A stretch of DNA of 57,437 nt. Source: Candidatus Thalassarchaeaceae archaeon (GTDB lineage: Archaea; Thermoplasmatota; Poseidoniia; MGIII; CG-Epi1). Under the pieces are notes generated by a model that worked only from the letters and a program-made list of their open reading frames with translations, ran no database searches and had not been told where the DNA came from. The position numbers were made by a program, and so were the translations under genes. The DNA lies in assembly GCA_963578705.1 (NCBI GenBank), contig CAUZDT010000002.1, forward strand, positions 1-57,437. The letters are read 5' to 3'. Shown piece by piece: positions 30,662 through 37,429 of this stretch (positions are counted from its first letter, which is position 1; each line of letters opens with the position of its first letter).

Positions 30662-31019
30662 CCTACGTTTCCCGCCCGCGGACGAGACGCATTACGTCTA
30701 CGACAAGGAGGCGGTCGGCGAAGGCTCGCGCTACGGCGAGTCGACGGTCGGCAACGTGGAGGAGCGCACCTGTCGTGGCTGCGGCCAGCGCTTCAACTGG
30801 GCCTTCAAGGTCGGCAATGCGATGACCGATTCGACGCCGGACGGCGTCGCGCACGCGGTCGACAACGGTGCCAGCCGGGGCTACTGCTCAATTGAGTGCT
30901 TCATGGCGGGAGATTCCGACCTCGAGCAGGCGACGCTCGACCGCGACTCCGCCGGAATTTGGGCGCTGGCGAAGCGCAACTGGTTTGGGTTGAAAGTGCT
31001 GCGCGGGCTGGGCCGTTAG
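30642..31019 (+). CDS. hypothetical Cys-containing (possible zinc-ribbon) protein
   Basis: 125 aa with CRGCGQRF...CSIEC. 20-nt overlap with the upstream gene. Its stop overlaps the radA stop. No family recognised. Confidence 0.35.
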   Translation: MTTTNFDLRFPPADETHYVYDKEAVGEGSRYGESTVGNVEERTCRGCGQRFNWAFKVGNAMTDSTPDGVAHAVDNGASRGYCSIECFMAGDSDLEQATLDRDSAGIWALAKRNWFGLKVLRGLGR

Positions 31020-31966
31020 TCGCGGATCCCGTCTTCCAGGATCTGGACTACCGCTTCCCCGTCGGGCAGGTGTGGTGAATCGACGAGCCGGAAGATGCGC
31101 TTCCCCGCCTTGCCGCGCCGGATATAGATCCTGAATTTTGAGGTGTGGCCGACGATGTGGCCGCCAATTGGCCTGGTCGGGTCGCCGAAAGCGAAACCGT
31201 CCGGTTTGGAGAGCACCTGATTAGTGACTGCCACTGCAGCGTTATGCTCGTCTGCGAATTTAGTTAGGGCCTCCATATGACTGCCGATTTTGCCCTGTCG
31301 TTCGGCTAGCATGCCGCGGCCGATATACTCCGACCGGAACGCGCCGGTCAGTGAGTCGACCGCCAGTAGCCGGATTGGCCGCTCCTCGGCCAGTTGCTTG
31401 ACTTTATCGACCATCAGCATCTGCTGGTGCGAGTTGTAGGCGCGGCCGACGTGGATGCGAGCCAGCACCTCATCGGGGTCCAGGTCCAGGGCTTTGGCCA
31501 TCGAGATGATGCGTTCGGGGCGGAAGGTATTCTCGGTATCGATAATCGCTGCTTCCCCATTCAGGCCCCCCTGCTCCTCCGGCAGCTGTACGGTCACTGC
31601 CAGCTGGTGGATAATCTGCGTTTTACCCGAACCGTATTGTCCATAGAATTCGGTGATTAACTGCGTCTCGACGCCGCCGCCGAGCAGCGCGTCCAGCTCG
31701 CTGGAGCAGCTGGTCAGCTTGCCTACAGTCTGCCGTTTCTCGAGCAGTTCAGCCCCCGTCAGGATTCCACCAATATCGACCATACCGATTGCGGCATGGA
31801 TGATCTCAGCGCACTTAGAATTACCAACACCAGCAGCCTCGCTCAGGCGCGAGGGCGATTGAGTCGCAATCGATTCGAGGGTACGGTATCCTGCACCTCG
31901 TAGTTTATCGCCGATGGTGGGGCCGACCCCGGGGAGGTCCTCGATTGATTCTTCTTTCTTGCCCAT
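31016..31966 (-). CDS. radA: DNA repair and recombination protein RadA
   Basis: 316 aa from ATG 31966 (TTG 31969 is possible). HhH region LPGVGPTIGDKLRGAGY, Walker A GQYGSGKTQ, Walker B LLAVDSL. Confidence 0.93.
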   Translation of the reverse strand: MGKKEESIEDLPGVGPTIGDKLRGAGYRTLESIATQSPSRLSEAAGVGNSKCAEIIHAAIGMVDIGGILTGAELLEKRQTVGKLTSCSSELDALLGGGVETQLITEFYGQYGSGKTQIIHQLAVTVQLPEEQGGLNGEAAIIDTENTFRPERIISMAKALDLDPDEVLARIHVGRAYNSHQQMLMVDKVKQLAEERPIRLLAVDSLTGAFRSEYIGRGMLAERQGKIGSHMEALTKFADEHNAAVAVTNQVLSKPDGFAFGDPTRPIGGHIVGHTSKFRIYIRRGKAGKRIFRLVDSPHLPDGEAVVQILEDGIRD

Positions 31967-32088
31967 CAACGCCTCCGGGGGACGGTTGCCAGTGGTAGTT
32001 CGACTTCCCGCAGCCAGTCAAACTCGCGAGGGTCTTCCCAGCGCGGGGCGATAGCCTTGAGGAACTCGCGTACAGACTTGCTTGGCAT
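31966..32088 (-). CDS. 40-aa micro-ORF translationally coupled to both the rpa2-like gene and radA
   Basis: MPSKSVREFLKAIAPRWEDPREFDWLREVELPLATVPRRR. Its ATG overlaps the upstream stop (TGATG) and its TGA overlaps the radA ATG (TGATG). It exactly fills the 118-bp gap. Confidence 0.4.
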   Translation of the reverse strand: MPSKSVREFLKAIAPRWEDPREFDWLREVELPLATVPRRR

Positions 32089-33050
32089 CATGCTACCCGG
32101 AATTTGTTGAACGCTGGCTGGTAGGTCAGCCCCTGGTCGTTGAGCGAGTCGATGACCTCGTCGAGGCGCGAGCCGTCGATGCCGGCTGCCGCTGCGGAAT
32201 CGCGCAGCGTCTCGTAGATTACGCCTTCTCCGTCGCCTTCCTTGTCGAGTGAGCCTATGAGCTCGAGCACGGCCGCCTCGGCGTCCGCGTCGCCTTCCGG
32301 TTCCCCGTCAGGCGCTGCGGCAGGCGTTTCATCGCCTGCGTGGGTGTCCTGCTCCGCTATGGACGCAGGCGGTTCCGGTGCCACCGGAGCCGCTTCCGTC
32401 TCGGCCGCTTCCACATCGCTGGCGGTCTCGAACTCGCCGGTGAACTGCGCCGTGCTCGGCGCAGTCGTGTCGCCGCTGAGATTCCGCAGGCAGTCGTAGA
32501 GCAGTCCGGCGTAGGATTCGGTCGATACCGTCTCGTATTTTTCCTGCGCCAGGCCAAGCCCTTCTTTTTCGCGGTTGCTCAGCTCGGCATCGTCGCCCTT
32601 CAGGCGGCGCATCAGTGATTCGCACGCCTTGATGGCCCAGACTGAGACTTCCTGCTCGCTGACCGCGCGCACGTTCTCGGGCTGGACGCTGACGTAGACC
32701 GAGTCGCTGTCGTCAGGTGAATAGGCACGCACCCTCCCGACGGAGATTACGTGCGTGGGCGTCTCGATTTTGGAGAGCGCCGCAGCGCCTTCGGGATTGT
32801 ACTGCCCGGCGCGCAGGTAGTAGGTGTCGCCGTGTGGGTCAACCATGCGCGCCATGTAGAACGGATCCGTCTCGCTGCCGCGGTTCTCGACATCGGTCAG
32901 GATACCGCCGATGAGCACGCGCGAGAGTTTGGAGCCCATCTCCGAAATCAGGTAGGTGGGCGAATACTCACGGTCCTCGACATGCGTCTCGTGGGCGCGC
33001 GAAAGCTCCTGCGCCAGTACCGGAAGGGCCGGCTCCCTGCGACGCGCCAT
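32088..33050 (-). CDS. RPA32-like / RPA-associated OB-fold protein with acidic linker and C-terminal winged-helix
   Basis: 320 aa. OB-like N-half (...VLIGGILTDVENRGSETDPFYMARMVDPHGDTYYLRAGQY...), then an Ala/Glu/Pro acidic linker, then C-terminal ...VIYETLRDSAAAAGIDGSRLDEVIDSLNDQGLTYQP... Its start abuts the rpa1 stop. Confidence 0.65.
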   Translation of the reverse strand: MARRREPALPVLAQELSRAHETHVEDREYSPTYLISEMGSKLSRVLIGGILTDVENRGSETDPFYMARMVDPHGDTYYLRAGQYNPEGAAALSKIETPTHVISVGRVRAYSPDDSDSVYVSVQPENVRAVSEQEVSVWAIKACESLMRRLKGDDAELSNREKEGLGLAQEKYETVSTESYAGLLYDCLRNLSGDTTAPSTAQFTGEFETASDVEAAETEAAPVAPEPPASIAEQDTHAGDETPAAAPDGEPEGDADAEAAVLELIGSLDKEGDGEGVIYETLRDSAAAAGIDGSRLDEVIDSLNDQGLTYQPAFNKFRVA

Positions 33051-34385
33051 TCAGGCCTCCAGCGCCGCCAGGAATTGCCTAGCGACAGAGGGCACGTCAA
33101 GATTGTGTGCCGGCTGGCACTTGCGCGCGAAGAACATCAGACCGTAGTCGTCGGAGCGGGTGTACCCCTCCACCGTCAGTGGCTTGAGCAGAAGCGCCTG
33201 TTCCAGCTCTTCGGTCAGCGACTCAGCCGAGTAGTTCTCGCGTACCAGTTCGAGGCACGAATCAAGGTCGCGCCCCAACACCTTCTCGGTCAGCTCTCGG
33301 TTCAGGAATAGCTGTAGCGAACCGGTGCCGTCATCGAAGAGTAGCTTGGTCCGCAGGTCGGGCTGCCCCTCCTGCTCGCCGTGTACCATGCACTGCCGGC
33401 TGCGGAGCATGCGGTTGCACTCAGGGCAGCGGAAAATCAGTCCGCTGCCCTCGCGCACTGCCAGCACGTGCCCCTCCAGGAGCGCGTCGCTAGCGCCACC
33501 GCGCTCGTCGAGCAGGTCGATAGTGTAGCTGGTCCCCACCGCCAGTTCTTCCAGCGATGGGAGTTCGGCGTCGACCGTGCTTACTGCGGTGTTTTCGTTG
33601 ATTTGCAGCTCGGGGATGCCCTGCCACTCGCGCACGTAGGCGTTGCCGATTTCGTAGATGGTATCTGCCTGTAGTTTGTGGTCGTGCCAGGCGGTGAAGC
33701 GGCAGCTACCGCTGGCGTCTGCCAGCGTCCCGCTCCAGAGCGCTTTCGGCTCGGTGCGTACGGTCACCTCGCGCTCCTGCACATCCAAGATGCGCACGGT
33801 CAGCGTGACCGAGCCCATGCCGTCCCGTAGTCCCGCAACGTCGCTCGCGGAGCCGGCGGTCGGACTGTCGGCCGCCGGCACATCCAGCGCCGCCAGAGCC
33901 TCGTCTTCGACCTCCCGCACCCGGCAGCGGTCGCCCAGATTCAGGTCGACGCGATCTTTCCAGCCTTTGGAATAGGCGTTAGTGACCTCGAGGATAGTCC
34001 CCGGCACGGCCGTGAACTCGTCACGCCAGACGGTGAAGCGCAGGGTAGCGCTGCCGTCGGCGATTTGACCCTCGAAAATGGTCTTCTGCGAGCCATCTTT
34101 CAGGTTGATTTCCTTCGAGAACACAGACACGATCTTCGCGCGGAAGCTGATCGATGACTCGTCTGCTTTGATGTCAGCCAGCGGCATGAATGCGCTGGCC
34201 TGCAACGTGCGGGGGTCGCCGTAGTGCTTCCGGACAATCGCCTCTTTGGCGGTTGCCAGATCGATGCCGTAGTTCTCCACGTATTGCCTCAGTTCTTCGA
34301 CAATCGTGGCTTCGTCCAGTTTGTTTTCCAGGGCCTCTGCAATGTCCTTGACATGCGGGCCAAAGTCGGTTTCGTTTGCTTGCAT
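33051..34385 (-). CDS. replication factor A large subunit (multi-OB with zinc finger)
   Basis: ORF 33051..34439 trimmed to ATG 34385, which has AAGGAG 7 nt upstream. Repeated OB blocks are present (...GQIADGSATLRFTVWRDEF..., ...GTLADASGSCRFTAWHDHK...), plus CPECNRMLRSRQCMVHG. Confidence 0.8.
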   Translation of the reverse strand: MQANETDFGPHVKDIAEALENKLDEATIVEELRQYVENYGIDLATAKEAIVRKHYGDPRTLQASAFMPLADIKADESSISFRAKIVSVFSKEINLKDGSQKTIFEGQIADGSATLRFTVWRDEFTAVPGTILEVTNAYSKGWKDRVDLNLGDRCRVREVEDEALAALDVPAADSPTAGSASDVAGLRDGMGSVTLTVRILDVQEREVTVRTEPKALWSGTLADASGSCRFTAWHDHKLQADTIYEIGNAYVREWQGIPELQINENTAVSTVDAELPSLEELAVGTSYTIDLLDERGGASDALLEGHVLAVREGSGLIFRCPECNRMLRSRQCMVHGEQEGQPDLRTKLLFDDGTGSLQLFLNRELTEKVLGRDLDSCLELVRENYSAESLTEELEQALLLKPLTVEGYTRSDDYGLMFFARKCQPAHNLDVPSVARQFLAALEA

Positions 34386-34557
34386 GGAGTATCTCCTTTG
34401 TTTATGCCCCAGGACTCCACTCCGGGACAACCCATACACCCTACTAGGGGTTATAAACTTAATGGTGATTATGTTGATTACCCTTTTTAGGTATTATACT
34501 ATATGGGGGAAAGGATGCATCTCAACCGTTATATGGAGGCCAGTCTCGGCGCAGCCG

Positions 34558-35238
34558 ATGAGGGTAGACGAACTGACCCTGCGCAGCAGCCGCATTAGCA
34601 TGGCGGTCAAGGTGCTGTCGATGGATGAGCCCCGCGATATCGATAGTGGCGGCCGGGTCTGTGAAGGACTGGTAGGCGACGAAACCGGCACGATCGTGAT
34701 GAGTTTCTGGAACGAGGAATGCGACCAAGCGGCGGTCGATGCGACCATCTGGCTCAAGGATGCGCGCGCCACCCTGGTGCGCGGGTCGCTCCGTTTAAGC
34801 CTCGGCGAGTTCGGCTCGCTGGGCGAGCCCGACCGGGAAGTGGGCAGCATCCGCGATGACCTAAACCTCTCCGACATCGCATACGCGATGCCGCGACCCG
34901 ACCGCGGACGCGGCGGTGGCCGGGGCGGCGGTGGCGGAGGCAAGTGCTTCAACTGCGGCAAGCCGGGCCATATCTCCCGCGAATGCCCGGAAGGCGGTGG
35001 CGGCAAGCCGGGCGGCGGCAAGTGTTTCAACTGCGGCAAGCCGGGCCATATCTCCCGCGAATGCCCGGAAGGCGGTGGCGGCAAGCCGGGCGGCGGCAAG
35101 TGTTTCAATTGCGGCAAGCCGGGCCACATCTCCCGTGACTGCCCAGAAGGCGGTGGTGGGAAGCCGGGCGGCGGCAAGTGTTTCAACTGCGGCAAGCCGG
35201 GCCACATCTCCAGTGACTGCCCCGACCGGGGGAACTGA
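34558..35238 (+). CDS. SSB-like OB-fold protein with RGG tract and four CCHC zinc knuckles
   Basis: ORF 34306.. trimmed to ATG 34558, giving 226 aa. The N-terminus ...GRVCEGLVGDETGTIVMSFWNEE...ATLVRGSLRLSLGEFGSLGE... has an OB pattern. It is followed by RGRGGGRGGGGGG and then 4x KCFNCGKPGHISR(E/D)CP (C-X2-C-X4-H-X4-C) separated by EGGGGKPGGG. Confidence 0.8.
   Translation: MRVDELTLRSSRISMAVKVLSMDEPRDIDSGGRVCEGLVGDETGTIVMSFWNEECDQAAVDATIWLKDARATLVRGSLRLSLGEFGSLGEPDREVGSIRDDLNLSDIAYAMPRPDRGRGGGRGGGGGGKCFNCGKPGHISRECPEGGGGKPGGGKCFNCGKPGHISRECPEGGGGKPGGGKCFNCGKPGHISRDCPEGGGGKPGGGKCFNCGKPGHISSDCPDRGN
34942..35222 (+). repeat. four tandem 78-bp coding repeats (zinc-knuckle units)
   Basis: Units start at 34942, 35020, 35098 and 35176 (exact 78-nt period). 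Units 1-3 differ by only a few synonymous or near-synonymous positions. Confidence 0.95.
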
Positions 35239-35338
35239 GCTGGCGCGACGCGGGCGGCACCGCAGGCGCGGCCCCAAGAAGGCGCAGCCGCCGCGACGCA
35301 AGGTGAAAAAGCCGCAGAAGCGGCAGATTCGGCAGCGG

Positions 35339-35578
35339 ATGCTCAATCCTGCGCGCCGCACCGAGACGATTTACTTCCTGGACGAGGCGCTACAGGAATC
35401 GGACCTGGGCGAGAAAGAGACCGAGCCGTTCATCGCCACGCTGGTAGCGCTGGCGACGCGCGAAACGCTGGGCGCCGCGGCCGACATGCTGGAAGAGAAA
35501 AGCGGGGAAGGCATCATCACCCCTGACATGAGCGAGCAGCTGCTCAGGATAATGAGCCGCTTTTCCGTAATGCGGTGA
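35339..35578 (+). CDS. hypothetical small protein (possible GTG 35303 start adds a Lys/Arg-rich N-terminus)
   Basis: MLNPARRTETIYFLDEALQESDLGEKETEPFIATLVALATRETLGAAADMLEEKSGEGIITPDMSEQLLRIMSRFSVMR. This is the 3' part of track ORF 34916..35578. It is followed by a T6 run (35581-86) and then infB. No family recognised. Confidence 0.35.
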   Translation: MLNPARRTETIYFLDEALQESDLGEKETEPFIATLVALATRETLGAAADMLEEKSGEGIITPDMSEQLLRIMSRFSVMR

Positions 35579-35596: not shown

Positions 35597-37429
35597 GTGC
35601 GGCCGGTCCTGATGGCCAGCGACGACGAGGCTGCAGACGCCGACGCTCCTGATGAGGGGCAGCCGCCGACAGGACCGCTGCGCCAGCCCATCGTGGCAGT
35701 GCTGGGGCACGTCGACCACGGCAAGACGTCGCTGCTCGACTGGGTGCGCGGTACCGCGGTCGTAAGCCGCGAGGCGGGCGCGATTACGCAGCACATCGGC
35801 GCGACCGAGGTGCCATTCGAGACTATCAGCGACATCTGCGGCGCGCTGTTGCCGGAGGAGAACATCCGGCTCCCCGGGCTGCTCTTCATCGACACCCCCG
35901 GCCACCACTCCTTCAGCACTCTGCGCGCGCGTGGGGGACAGCTGGCGGACTTAGCGGTGCTGCTCGTCGACATCATGGAGGGGTTCAAGCCGCAGACCAT
36001 CGAGTCGCTGCAGGTGCTACGGCGGGCGCAGACGCCCTTTATCCTGGTGCTGAACAAGATTGACCGGCTCCCCGGCTGGCGCACTCGCAAGGGCACTTTC
36101 GCCGCCAACCGGCAGGAGCAGTCGCAGCTGGCGCAGGATGCGCTGCAGGAGCGCATCTGGGAGATTGTGCGTGAACTGGGCGGACACAACTTCGATTCGG
36201 CGCTCTACTCCGAGGTCGAGGATTTCCAGAAGACGATTGCGCTGGTGCCCACGTCGGTCCGCGACAGCGGCGAAGGCGTCCCTGAGCTGTTTATGCTGCT
36301 GATGGGGCTGGCGCAACGCTATCTCGAGGGGCGACTGGCGCAGAAGGAGGGCGTAGCCGAGGGGACCGTGCTCGAGGTAAAGGAGGAGCGCGGGCTCGGC
36401 AAGACGCTTGGCGTCATAATCTACAACGGTGTCCTGCGCGCGAGCGACACGCTGGTCATCGGCGCGACGCCCGAGCCGCTGGTAACGCGCGTGCGCAGCC
36501 TGCTGCAGCCGCGGCCGCTGGACGAAATTCGCGACCCGCGCCAGCAGTTCAACGTGGTCACGGAGGTCGCTGCCGCCGCCGGCCTGAAGGTGGTCGCGCC
36601 TGATCTTGAGGGCGTCATCGCCGGCGCGCCCTTCTACGGAGTCCCGCAAGGCGACGATATCGCGCCAGTGCTGGAACGGCTTTCGGGGGAGATGGAGAGC
36701 AACGTCGCGCTCGAGGACCGCGGGTTGGTGGTGCGCGCCGACGCCATCGGCTCGCTCGAGGCGCTCGCCTACGAACTGCAGGAAGCTGGGGCCCCGATAA
36801 TGCGCGCCGCCGTCGGCGACGTCTCGCGCCGCGACGTGCGGCTGGCTGAGACCGCGCCGGCCGAGCAGCGCGCGGTGCTGGCGTTCGGCGTCAACGTGCT
36901 GCCCGACGCGCGCGAAGCACTGGTCGAGAGCGAAGCGAAGCTCTTCGAGGCGGACGTGGTCTACCAGCTGGTCGAGGAATACGGCGAGTGGCTGCTGGAG
37001 CTGAAGCGCGAGCAGGCACGGGCGTTGCGCGAGGAATTCCCGCACCCGGGCAAAATCGAGTTTCTGGAAGGGCACACCTTCCGCACGCGTGACCCCGCCG
37101 TCTTCGGCGTGCGAGTGCTGGCGGGGCGCATCATGGTGGGTCAGAAAGTGCTGCGAGCGGACAACCGCGTTATCGGCCGCATCCGCTCGATGCGCTCCGG
37201 GGAGCAAGGCCTGAAGGAGGCGACACAGGGCGACGAAGTCGCGATTGCCGTGACCGAGGCGACCGTCGGCCGGCAGGTAAACGAGGGCGATATTCTTTAT
37301 ATAGAGATGGTTGAGCGCGACGTGGTGCGTCTGCGCGACGAAAACGTCAAGCTGACGCCCGACGAGGAAGACGTTATCACCGAGTTACAGCGCATCAAGA
37401 AGGCGGATTCCCCGTTCTGGGGGCGTTGA
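35597..37429 (+). CDS. infB: translation initiation factor aIF5B (IF-2 family GTPase)
   Basis: 610 aa (GTG 35597; ATG 35612 is the alternative). G motifs VLGHVDHGKTSLLD, DTPGH, NKID. Confidence 0.92.
   Translation: MRPVLMASDDEAADADAPDEGQPPTGPLRQPIVAVLGHVDHGKTSLLDWVRGTAVVSREAGAITQHIGATEVPFETISDICGALLPEENIRLPGLLFIDTPGHHSFSTLRARGGQLADLAVLLVDIMEGFKPQTIESLQVLRRAQTPFILVLNKIDRLPGWRTRKGTFAANRQEQSQLAQDALQERIWEIVRELGGHNFDSALYSEVEDFQKTIALVPTSVRDSGEGVPELFMLLMGLAQRYLEGRLAQKEGVAEGTVLEVKEERGLGKTLGVIIYNGVLRASDTLVIGATPEPLVTRVRSLLQPRPLDEIRDPRQQFNVVTEVAAAAGLKVVAPDLEGVIAGAPFYGVPQGDDIAPVLERLSGEMESNVALEDRGLVVRADAIGSLEALAYELQEAGAPIMRAAVGDVSRRDVRLAETAPAEQRAVLAFGVNVLPDAREALVESEAKLFEADVVYQLVEEYGEWLLELKREQARALREEFPHPGKIEFLEGHTFRTRDPAVFGVRVLAGRIMVGQKVLRADNRVIGRIRSMRSGEQGLKEATQGDEVAIAVTEATVGRQVNEGDILYIEMVERDVVRLRDENVKLTPDEEDVITELQRIKKADSPFWGR

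Follow-up and report, generated by a model that had tools for sequence, protein, structure and literature searches.

A single-OB SSB with a zinc-knuckle tail

Within a 57,437-nucleotide stretch of contig CAUZDT010000002.1 (assembly GCA_963578705.1, Candidatus Thalassarchaeaceae archaeon), hereafter the window, a complete gene on the forward strand (34558..35238; 226 amino acids [aa] plus stop, from ATG 34558 to TGA 35236-35238) encodes, in order, an Ssb-like OB fold, an RGG tract, and four C-X2-C-X4-H-X4-C zinc knuckles. The gene is the Marine Group III (MGIII; Poseidoniia) ortholog of the archaeal single-OB SSB, of the Sulfolobus SSB/human SSB1 type, and not a new gene; what is new here is a eukaryote-type knuckle tail on an otherwise known kind of archaeal SSB. 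We favor the reading, to which we give a probability of roughly 0.55, that the protein acts, by analogy with characterized relatives, as a general single-strand nucleic-acid binder or chaperone with RNA among its substrates. The start codon is backed by the homologs, whose N termini read M[RK]VDELTPR.

An earlier note on this DNA had recognized an SSB-type OB domain at residues ~1-110, an RGG tract, and four exact CCHC knuckles, and each of these parts was recovered independently. The OB fold proper (residues 11-90; 34588..34827, +), which includes a GDETG loop, is matched by the Pfam model PF21473 (Ssb-like_OB; E=3.4e-11; bit score 43.6, cut-off 24), aligns with the Sulfolobus SSB (SsoSSB) structure 1o7i, and is modeled as such by AlphaFold2 (AF2) from a 47-sequence alignment: pLDDT is 71-87 across residues 11-90, and the order of strand, helix, and strand is that of an OB barrel (the tail is of low confidence in the model, as expected for a flexible region). 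The best Foldseek matches in the PDB (E of 2e-6 to 5e-5, probability 1.00) are hSSB1 (5d8f, 4oww), Sulfolobus SSB (7wcg, 1o7i, 2mna), Arabidopsis At4g28440 (1wjj), and Thermoplasma Ta0387 (2k75), and phmmer with the protein finds 1wjj at E=1.8e-8 and SsoSSB at E~5e-6. Among NCBIfam models, the best is NF005049 (single-stranded DNA-binding protein PRK06461), whose score of 78.6 bits lies under the equivalog cut-off of 188 and marks the protein as a family relative of the curated PRK06461 models, not their equivalog.

Alignment with SsoSSB (1o7i) places W51 opposite W56, R70 (invariant in MGIII) opposite W75, and V74 opposite F79. These three SsoSSB residues are the base-stacking aromatics of its single-stranded DNA (ssDNA) cleft, and W51 is the sole one kept; with two of the stackers replaced, extra stacking modules could therefore matter. 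The protein resembles SsoSSB, hSSB1 (NABP2), and At4g28440 in its single OB fold, in having a Trp just after the VGDETG loop, and in its flexible Gly/Arg-rich tail, and it resembles Ta0387 in coexisting with a separate RPA. It differs from SsoSSB at the two replaced stackers and in having four CCHC knuckles in place of the acidic tip.

Past the barrel, a segment delimited by alignment and AF2 (residues 95-114, ...NLSDIAYAMPRP; 34840..34899, +) is helical in the model (helices 95-100 and 104-110, at low confidence), and its residues N103, S105, D106, Y109, M111, P112, and R113 are invariant across MGIII SSBs. It runs into the RGG/Gly-Arg tract (residues 113-128, RPDRGRGGGRGGGGGG; 34894..34941, +), which is read directly from the sequence, and then into the four knuckles, all on the forward strand: knuckle 1 (CFNCGKPGHISREC) at 34945..34986, knuckle 2 at 35023..35064 (1 nucleotide [nt] in 51 different from unit 1), knuckle 3 at 35101..35142, and knuckle 4, the terminal unit (...HISSDCPDRGN*), at 35179..35220. 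All are detected by Pfam (PF00098 zf-CCHC, E=5e-35, four stretches) and by the regular expression C..C....H....C, which in a six-frame translation of all 57,437 bases matches four times, always inside this open reading frame (ORF). The units read CFNCGKPGHISxxC, with an aromatic residue after the first Cys and Gly after the second, as in the PF00098 family. At the DNA level, a knuckle and its Gly-rich linker (GGGGKPGGG) together form a 78-bp tandem repeat (34933..35222, +; 3.7 copies with 94% matches in Tandem Repeats Finder). The array is richer in G+C (70%) than the OB part and the whole window (63% each), an excess that is due to its Gly codons.

Orthologs, tail types, and selection

A first search with the OB domain returned 253 relatives, and all matches with a named source are labeled MGIII, Candidatus Poseidoniia, or Thermoplasmatota. 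Among named relatives, the closest comes from the Marine Group III euryarchaeote CG-Bathy2 and is annotated as a "hypothetical protein" (93% identical, 200 aa, three knuckles).

Read from the sequences, one and the same OB fold carries three types of tail. The first consists of the RGG box only; it is found in more distant relatives and is the common state of the wider family. The second, in a large AT-rich clade whose named members include "CG-Epi3" and "CG-Epi4," adds to the RGG box an acidic stretch that is expected to be helical (RWGxLMKLKRxTGNKKFFNRDEMxxEQIxAAIKEMGGE; residues ~130-172 in P0016, P0037, P0092, and others) and that has no match in a Pfam scan. The third adds one to four CCHC knuckles to the RGG box and is found in a GC-rich clade that includes the window and "CG-Bathy2." The helical tail of the AT-rich clade may serve to bind a partner.

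The same gene order, rpa2 and rpa1 divergent from the SSB gene, which is followed by a 79-aa ORF, (an aminotransferase gene), and aIF5B, surrounds knuckle-bearing genes (L001 to L003, L008, and L009), helical-tail genes (L004 to L006), and an RGG-only gene (L180), so that the rpa-divergent synteny to which the earlier note had drawn attention is conserved across all three lineages. This shared synteny indicates that the SSBs with the three tail types are orthologous. In a neighbor-joining tree of the OB domains (built without bootstrap support values), the knuckle bearers are monophyletic, the helical-tail clade is their sister group, and the RGG-only sequences branch outside both, which points to one acquisition of knuckles on an RGG-tailed ancestor. 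The protein is, as judged from these comparisons, the ordinary SSB of its lineage with a clade-specific swap of the tail.

The knuckle bearers fall into two subclades, with linkers of GGGGKPGGG or GGGGKGGG and ends of PDRGN or PERGS. Between these subclades, synonymous divergence (dS) in the OB domain is ~1.8 (i.e., saturated), yet the knuckles differ at just 5 to 6 of 51 residues; the ratio of nonsynonymous to synonymous divergence (dN/dS) is ~0.03-0.13 for the knuckles and ~0.07-0.08 for the OB domain. From these values, the knuckles are seen to be under purifying selection, which is strong and covers all residues of the unit, beyond Cys and His.

A further zinc module was observed in a distant single-OB SSB relative (P0272, 203 aa), whose RGG tail contains a C-X2-C...C-X2-C (C4) zinc ribbon (CADCGKDCEIPFTPTQSRPVYCRDC), indicating that zinc modules have been added to SSB tails more than once.

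Rarity and origin of the knuckles

CCHC knuckles typify the nucleic-acid chaperones of eukaryotes and retroviruses and are otherwise almost confined to these. A scan for the pattern C[FY]NCGKxGH in one GTDB genome per species, covering 185,579 species of bacteria and archaea, gave 62 loci. Seven are multi-knuckle arrays; these come without exception from archaeal metagenome-assembled genomes (MAGs) and lie in this SSB gene. Of the other loci, most are in long Gag/Pol-like frames or are HIV-1 gag, often on short contigs, and look like contamination; other prokaryotic knuckle proteins, being mostly of this kind, were rejected as donors. Outside the clade, knuckles are absent from the 268 OB homologs listed (120 + 148), and among the best 120 matches to the array, PF21473 and PF00098 occur together only in MGIII proteins. 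Counted across archaeal genomes and MAGs, as the earlier note had suggested, the architecture is thus confined to one GC-rich clade of Marine Group III. That note had also known of no characterized archaeal counterpart, and its statement holds: a search of the full-text literature turned up no account of CCHC knuckles on an archaeal SSB (where a "zinc knuckle" is mentioned for archaea, in a single case, treble-clef fingers are meant), and database names for the orthologs are "hypothetical" or "CCHC-type domain-containing protein."

Outside MGIII, the array is best matched, at 45-58% identity, by CNBP/HEXBP-like proteins from animals, fungi, and protists and by similar unnamed metagenome proteins, and the knuckle unit KCFNCGKPGHISRxCP aligns, almost identically, with finger 1 of the HIV-1 nucleocapsid (NC) protein, KCFNCGKEGHIAKNC. 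A viral vehicle was considered and set aside: when IMG/VR was scanned for the knuckle core, 30 matches were obtained, each of them single, and no multi-knuckle array. Contigs labelled as giant-virus MAGs (GVMAG) account for several of these matches, and whole contigs of ~9 kb for several. Near-consensus units, absence from other prokaryotes, and monophyly together favor a single capture from a eukaryote. We infer that in the ancestor of the GC-rich clade the tail past the RGG box was replaced, once, by a CCHC knuckle module, most probably eukaryotic, which would then have expanded and contracted by 78-bp tandem duplication to between one and four units.

Comparison with known systems helps to define what the protein is. 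Its nearest array relatives, CNBP, Gis2, HEXBP, and UMSBP, likewise have an RGG box beside the knuckles and Gly-rich linkers, but they are eukaryotic, lack an OB fold, and contain 5 to 9 knuckles, whereas here 1 to 4 knuckles are appended to an SSB. The plant cold-shock proteins (AtCSP1-4, wheat WCSP1) and Lin28 share with it a small five-stranded beta-barrel, a Gly-rich spacer, and CCHC knuckles; plant cold-shock domain proteins (CSDPs) rescue the E. coli csp mutant BX04 and have an RNA-chaperone/cold function. In contrast to those of Lin28 and the plant CSDPs, however, the barrel here is an SSB/RPA-type OB (PF21473), in an archaeal host, and the protein has no Pfam match to the cold-shock domain (CSD; PF00313) at E<=0.01; the likeness to CSD-Gly-CCHC proteins is one of convergent architecture, not of whole-protein homology. 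Retroviral NC (HIV-1 NCp7), the paradigm of a nucleic-acid chaperone, has a nearly identical unit in its finger 1, but the archaeal gene has no Gag context and no retroelement nearby and occupies a conserved chromosomal neighborhood. Euryarchaeal RPAs (the neighboring rpa1 product; Haloferax Rpa1-3) are also OB-fold single-strand binders carrying a zinc module, which in their case is a single C4/C3H finger inside a multi-OB protein and not, as here, a set of tandem CCHC knuckles in the flexible tail of a single OB. By its domain content, then, the protein is classed neither with CNBP (an OB is present), nor with Lin28/CSDPs (there is no CSD), nor with RPA (the OB is single and the Zn modules are not embedded).

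Probable function

On the favored reading, the OB cleft would hold a few nucleotides, the RGG box would add electrostatic and G-rich contacts, and each Zn knuckle would offer a Phe/Ile pocket for exposed bases, as does finger 1 of HIV-1 NC, with the Gly-rich linkers setting the units out like beads on a string. Both zinc binding and nucleic-acid binding are inferred for the knuckles by analogy. Together, OB, RGG box, and knuckles would provide multivalent, dynamic single-strand binding with a preference for exposed G, allowing the chaperone to melt or hold open secondary structure, that of RNA included. Multivalent, dynamic single-strand binding is the physical basis of chaperone activity in NC, CNBP, Lin28, and the plant CSD proteins.

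Precedent for an RNA substrate comes from Saccharolobus islandicus, whose single-OB SSB is required for neither replication nor repair, increases when the temperature is low, can melt double-stranded RNA and RNA/DNA hybrids, and has an OB domain that complements the csp-deficient E. coli strain BX04; such SSBs have been proposed to replace Csp in archaea without Csp (PMC10684826). Three features are consistent with a chaperone: a separate RPA (rpa1/rpa2) adjoins the SSB gene, the OB domain keeps one of the three SsoSSB stackers, and the knuckle version is without the acidic/helical tip of the sister clade. A more specific proposal, that the captured knuckles were fixed under selection and made of this SSB a Lin28- or plant-CSDP-like RNA chaperone that offsets very stable RNA structure in a GC-rich, cold-living genome, we regard as tentative and rather doubtful.

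Several points weigh against the favored reading. That the gene is paired divergently with rpa1-rpa2(-radA), and that this pairing is conserved, speaks no less for a role in DNA metabolism than for one in RNA. CNBP-type proteins bind G-rich ssDNA as well as RNA, and knuckles of the CNBP/UMSBP type, by that analogy, would not discriminate between the two substrates. The link between knuckles and depth or cold is attractive, but it is drawn from MAG names ("CG-Bathy2" versus "CG-Epi3/4") and GC content. The donor is untraceable because the units lie near the family consensus and match those of animals, fungi, and protists about equally. Finally, the shortfall from the NCBIfam equivalog cut-off, described above, belongs on the same side.

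The foremost alternative is that the protein is a dedicated ssDNA factor for replication, recombination, or repair, coregulated with rpa1-rpa2-radA from the divergent promoter that they would share, and that RNA is not among its physiological substrates; its knuckles would then widen the ssDNA footprint or add G-rich affinity in a 63% GC genome, in the manner of the kinetoplastid UMSBP and of CNBP. Divergence from rpa1-rpa2 is conserved in three diverged lineages (with radA in the operon in two), the shared spacer holds a conserved TATA-like element, the annotation is that of the SSB/RPA family, and the OB matches the ssDNA-bound structures of hSSB1 and SsoSSB. Gene order within one order-level lineage is, however, weak evidence of function, and linkage is equally tight downstream, to a small conserved ORF (X, described below) and the translation factor aIF5B. 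A multi-OB RPA is already present. Acidic tips in other SSBs recruit DNA-processing partners, and it is the acidic/helical C-terminal tip of its sister clade that the knuckle version is without. The crenarchaeal single-OB SSB, moreover, acts on RNA and is not needed for replication or repair (PMC10684826). A purely ssDNA role is a possibility that we take seriously and consider less likely than the favored reading.

Less probable still is that the knuckle tail serves mainly in regulation or protein interaction, as a zinc- or redox-sensitive switch or as a docking site in lieu of the sister clade's helical tail. Protein interaction is the classical function of SSB tails, and a zinc- or redox-sensitive switch has been reported for UMSBP. 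In favor of such a role, the array occupies the exact place of the conserved helical acidic tail of the sister clade, and its copy number varies. Its units, however, are near-identical to nucleic-acid-binding knuckles (finger 1 of HIV NC, CNBP), down to the Phe and the basic residues, and the purifying selection described above acts on every residue of the unit and not only on Cys and His; we consider this explanation improbable.

If the more specific proposal, a Lin28- or plant-CSDP-like RNA chaperone, is correct, no functional CCHC-knuckle protein native to a prokaryote would precede this one, and the sister clades, whose common OB fold bears an RGG-only, a helical, or a knuckle tail, would constitute a clean natural experiment in the retuning of single-strand binders. 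Recent work argues that archaeal single-OB SSBs act as RNA chaperones and not in replication, an idea that the three natural tail variants make directly testable. Selected knuckles in a core archaeal chromosomal gene bear on the source and mobility of the module, the likely direction being from eukaryote to archaeon, and the design of beta-barrel, Gly-rich spacer, and knuckles would have been reached independently in archaea. As the architecture is confined to a handful of species in an uncultivated lineage, its impact is conceptual rather than broad.

Integrity and copy number of the array

The array lies in frame between the same OB fold and the same downstream ORF in over 20 contigs that were assembled independently by different projects, some of them 110-277 kb long. 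Complete genes carry one, two, three, or four knuckles: four are present in two genotypes other than that of the window (P0399 and P0403), and three in a gene from another assembly whose OB sequence is exactly that of the window (P0400). The knuckle count for the window's genotype (three or four) is therefore uncertain, being either polymorphic or assembly dependent; the existence of the array is not in doubt.

One gene with a near-identical OB domain (P0002, L007 5350-5990; OB 92% identical) has a knuckle-free Gly/Lys/Arg tail, which is not a frameshifted reading of the array. Its 11-kb contig has 3.7x coverage and loses synteny past the gene: just beyond the SSB stop, a PqqD/TPR-like ORF stands in place of the 79-aa ORF and aIF5B. 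Most likely the contig was joined chimerically at the Gly-rich repeat and the tail does not represent a real allele; we set the sequence aside as a possible chimera and did not use it as a knuckle-free allele.

That the array itself is an assembly artifact had been entertained by the earlier note, and it could in principle have arisen from chimeric assembly with eukaryotic or retroelement reads or from misassembly of a low-complexity repeat; although contigs often break inside the array (L078, L080, L082, L084, L085, and L113), and although the three knuckles of P0400 and the low-coverage contig of P0002 favor such an origin, the in-frame array recurs in independent assemblies from different projects, orthologous arrays differ mainly by synonymous changes, their base composition fits the host, and doubt is confined to the exact number of knuckles, such that we give this explanation almost no credence.

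Genomic neighborhood

The setting described by the earlier note, in which the SSB gene diverges from rpa1-rpa2-microORF-radA across a 172-bp spacer and is codirectional with a small ORF and aIF5B, was borne out gene by gene. On the reverse strand, rpa1 (33051..34385; NF005554, E=5e-96) encodes a multi-OB RPA with a C-X2-C-X8-C-X2-H finger (CPECNRMLRSRQCMVH). Its longest ORF (33051-34439, -, from GTG, 462 aa) overshoots the start: the length of the homologs (442-454 aa) and a GGAG that is conserved 7 nt upstream point to ATG 34385, giving 444 aa. The divergent intergenic region (34386..34557) measures 172 bp if the rpa1 start is that of the 444-aa homologs. In an alignment of five diverged lineages, this spacer holds a TATA-like element, GGGTATATAAACTTAA, which is conserved, and a second T/A-rich box, and it is a putative promoter region for rpa1 and the SSB gene.

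Next to rpa1 lies a gene for an RPA32-like partner (rpa2; 32088..33050, -, 320 aa), whose identification by synteny is tentative (the C-terminal RPA_C/winged-helix domain PF08784 matches only at E=0.15). Between it and radA (31016..31969, -; PF08423, E=1.8e-81) lies a 41-codon ORF (31966-32091, -) that overlaps each by 4 nt. The encoded protein is conserved in both GC-rich subclades (SVREFL..PRWEDP[HR]EFDWLR); the AT-rich clade lacks the ORF and has rpa2 directly next to radA. By its conservation it looks like a real, clade-specific microprotein.

Downstream, the SSB gene, the small ORF, and aIF5B (infB; 35597..37429, +; PF00009, PF11987, and PF14578) are codirectional and are followed by a convergent gene for an XPD/Rad3-type helicase. 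The helicase gene (-; TIGR00604, E=3e-52) shares its last 35 nt (37395-37429) with the 3' end of aIF5B (+), and L001 has the same overlap. In an AT-rich MGIII genome, a gene ~4 kb from the SSB gene (L004 10737-10991, -) encodes an 84-aa RRM_1 (PF00076) protein; the RRM, another module for binding RNA, occurs mainly in eukaryotes and bacteria and is uncommon among archaea.

A conserved frame downstream of the SSB gene

Gene callers start the small ORF at ATG 35339, giving the 79-aa protein, but the conserved frame, which we call X, is longer: 112 codons (35240..35578, +), beginning at a CTG 1 nt past the SSB stop. The apparent spacer between the SSB gene and the 79-aa ORF (window 35240-35338; L004 6522-6620; L180 6398-6505) encodes a basic peptide, LARRGRHRRRGPKKAQPP.RK.KK..., and these 99-108 nt ahead of the ATG (33 codons in the window) are conserved as protein, in frame with the 79-aa ORF, in three lineages. 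The upstream segment, which includes LARRGRHRRRGPKK..., reads LARRGRHRRRGP[KS]KAQPP... in the GC-rich knuckle lineages and likewise in the AT-rich lineage, and LGRRRGRNRRRGPVKAQPP in the RGG-only lineage; its Arg codons switch between CGN and AGR from GC-rich to AT-rich lineages, a signature of coding sequence.

No ATG, GTG, or TTG precedes the conserved basic segment, and the conserved stretch starts at a CTG located 1-2 nt past the SSB stop (TGA-N-CTG, TAA-CT-CTG, TAG-G-CTG). This arrangement suggests that X is a 112-aa protein made through noncanonical initiation or through termination-reinitiation. Programmed frameshifting or read-through from the SSB gene into X was rejected: relative to the SSB gene, the X frame is +1 in GC-rich lineages and +2 in the AT-rich clade, and the stops are TGA, TAA, and TAG, variation that makes a single recoding mechanism unlikely, and an Rfam search returned nothing at E<=1. 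Termination-coupled reinitiation at a noncanonical codon seems more likely than frameshifting. The protein has no match in Pfam or NCBIfam and none below E=0.9 in Foldseek, and its sole homologs are 79-aa "hypothetical" proteins; AF2 models X as a four-helix bundle with a disordered basic arm.

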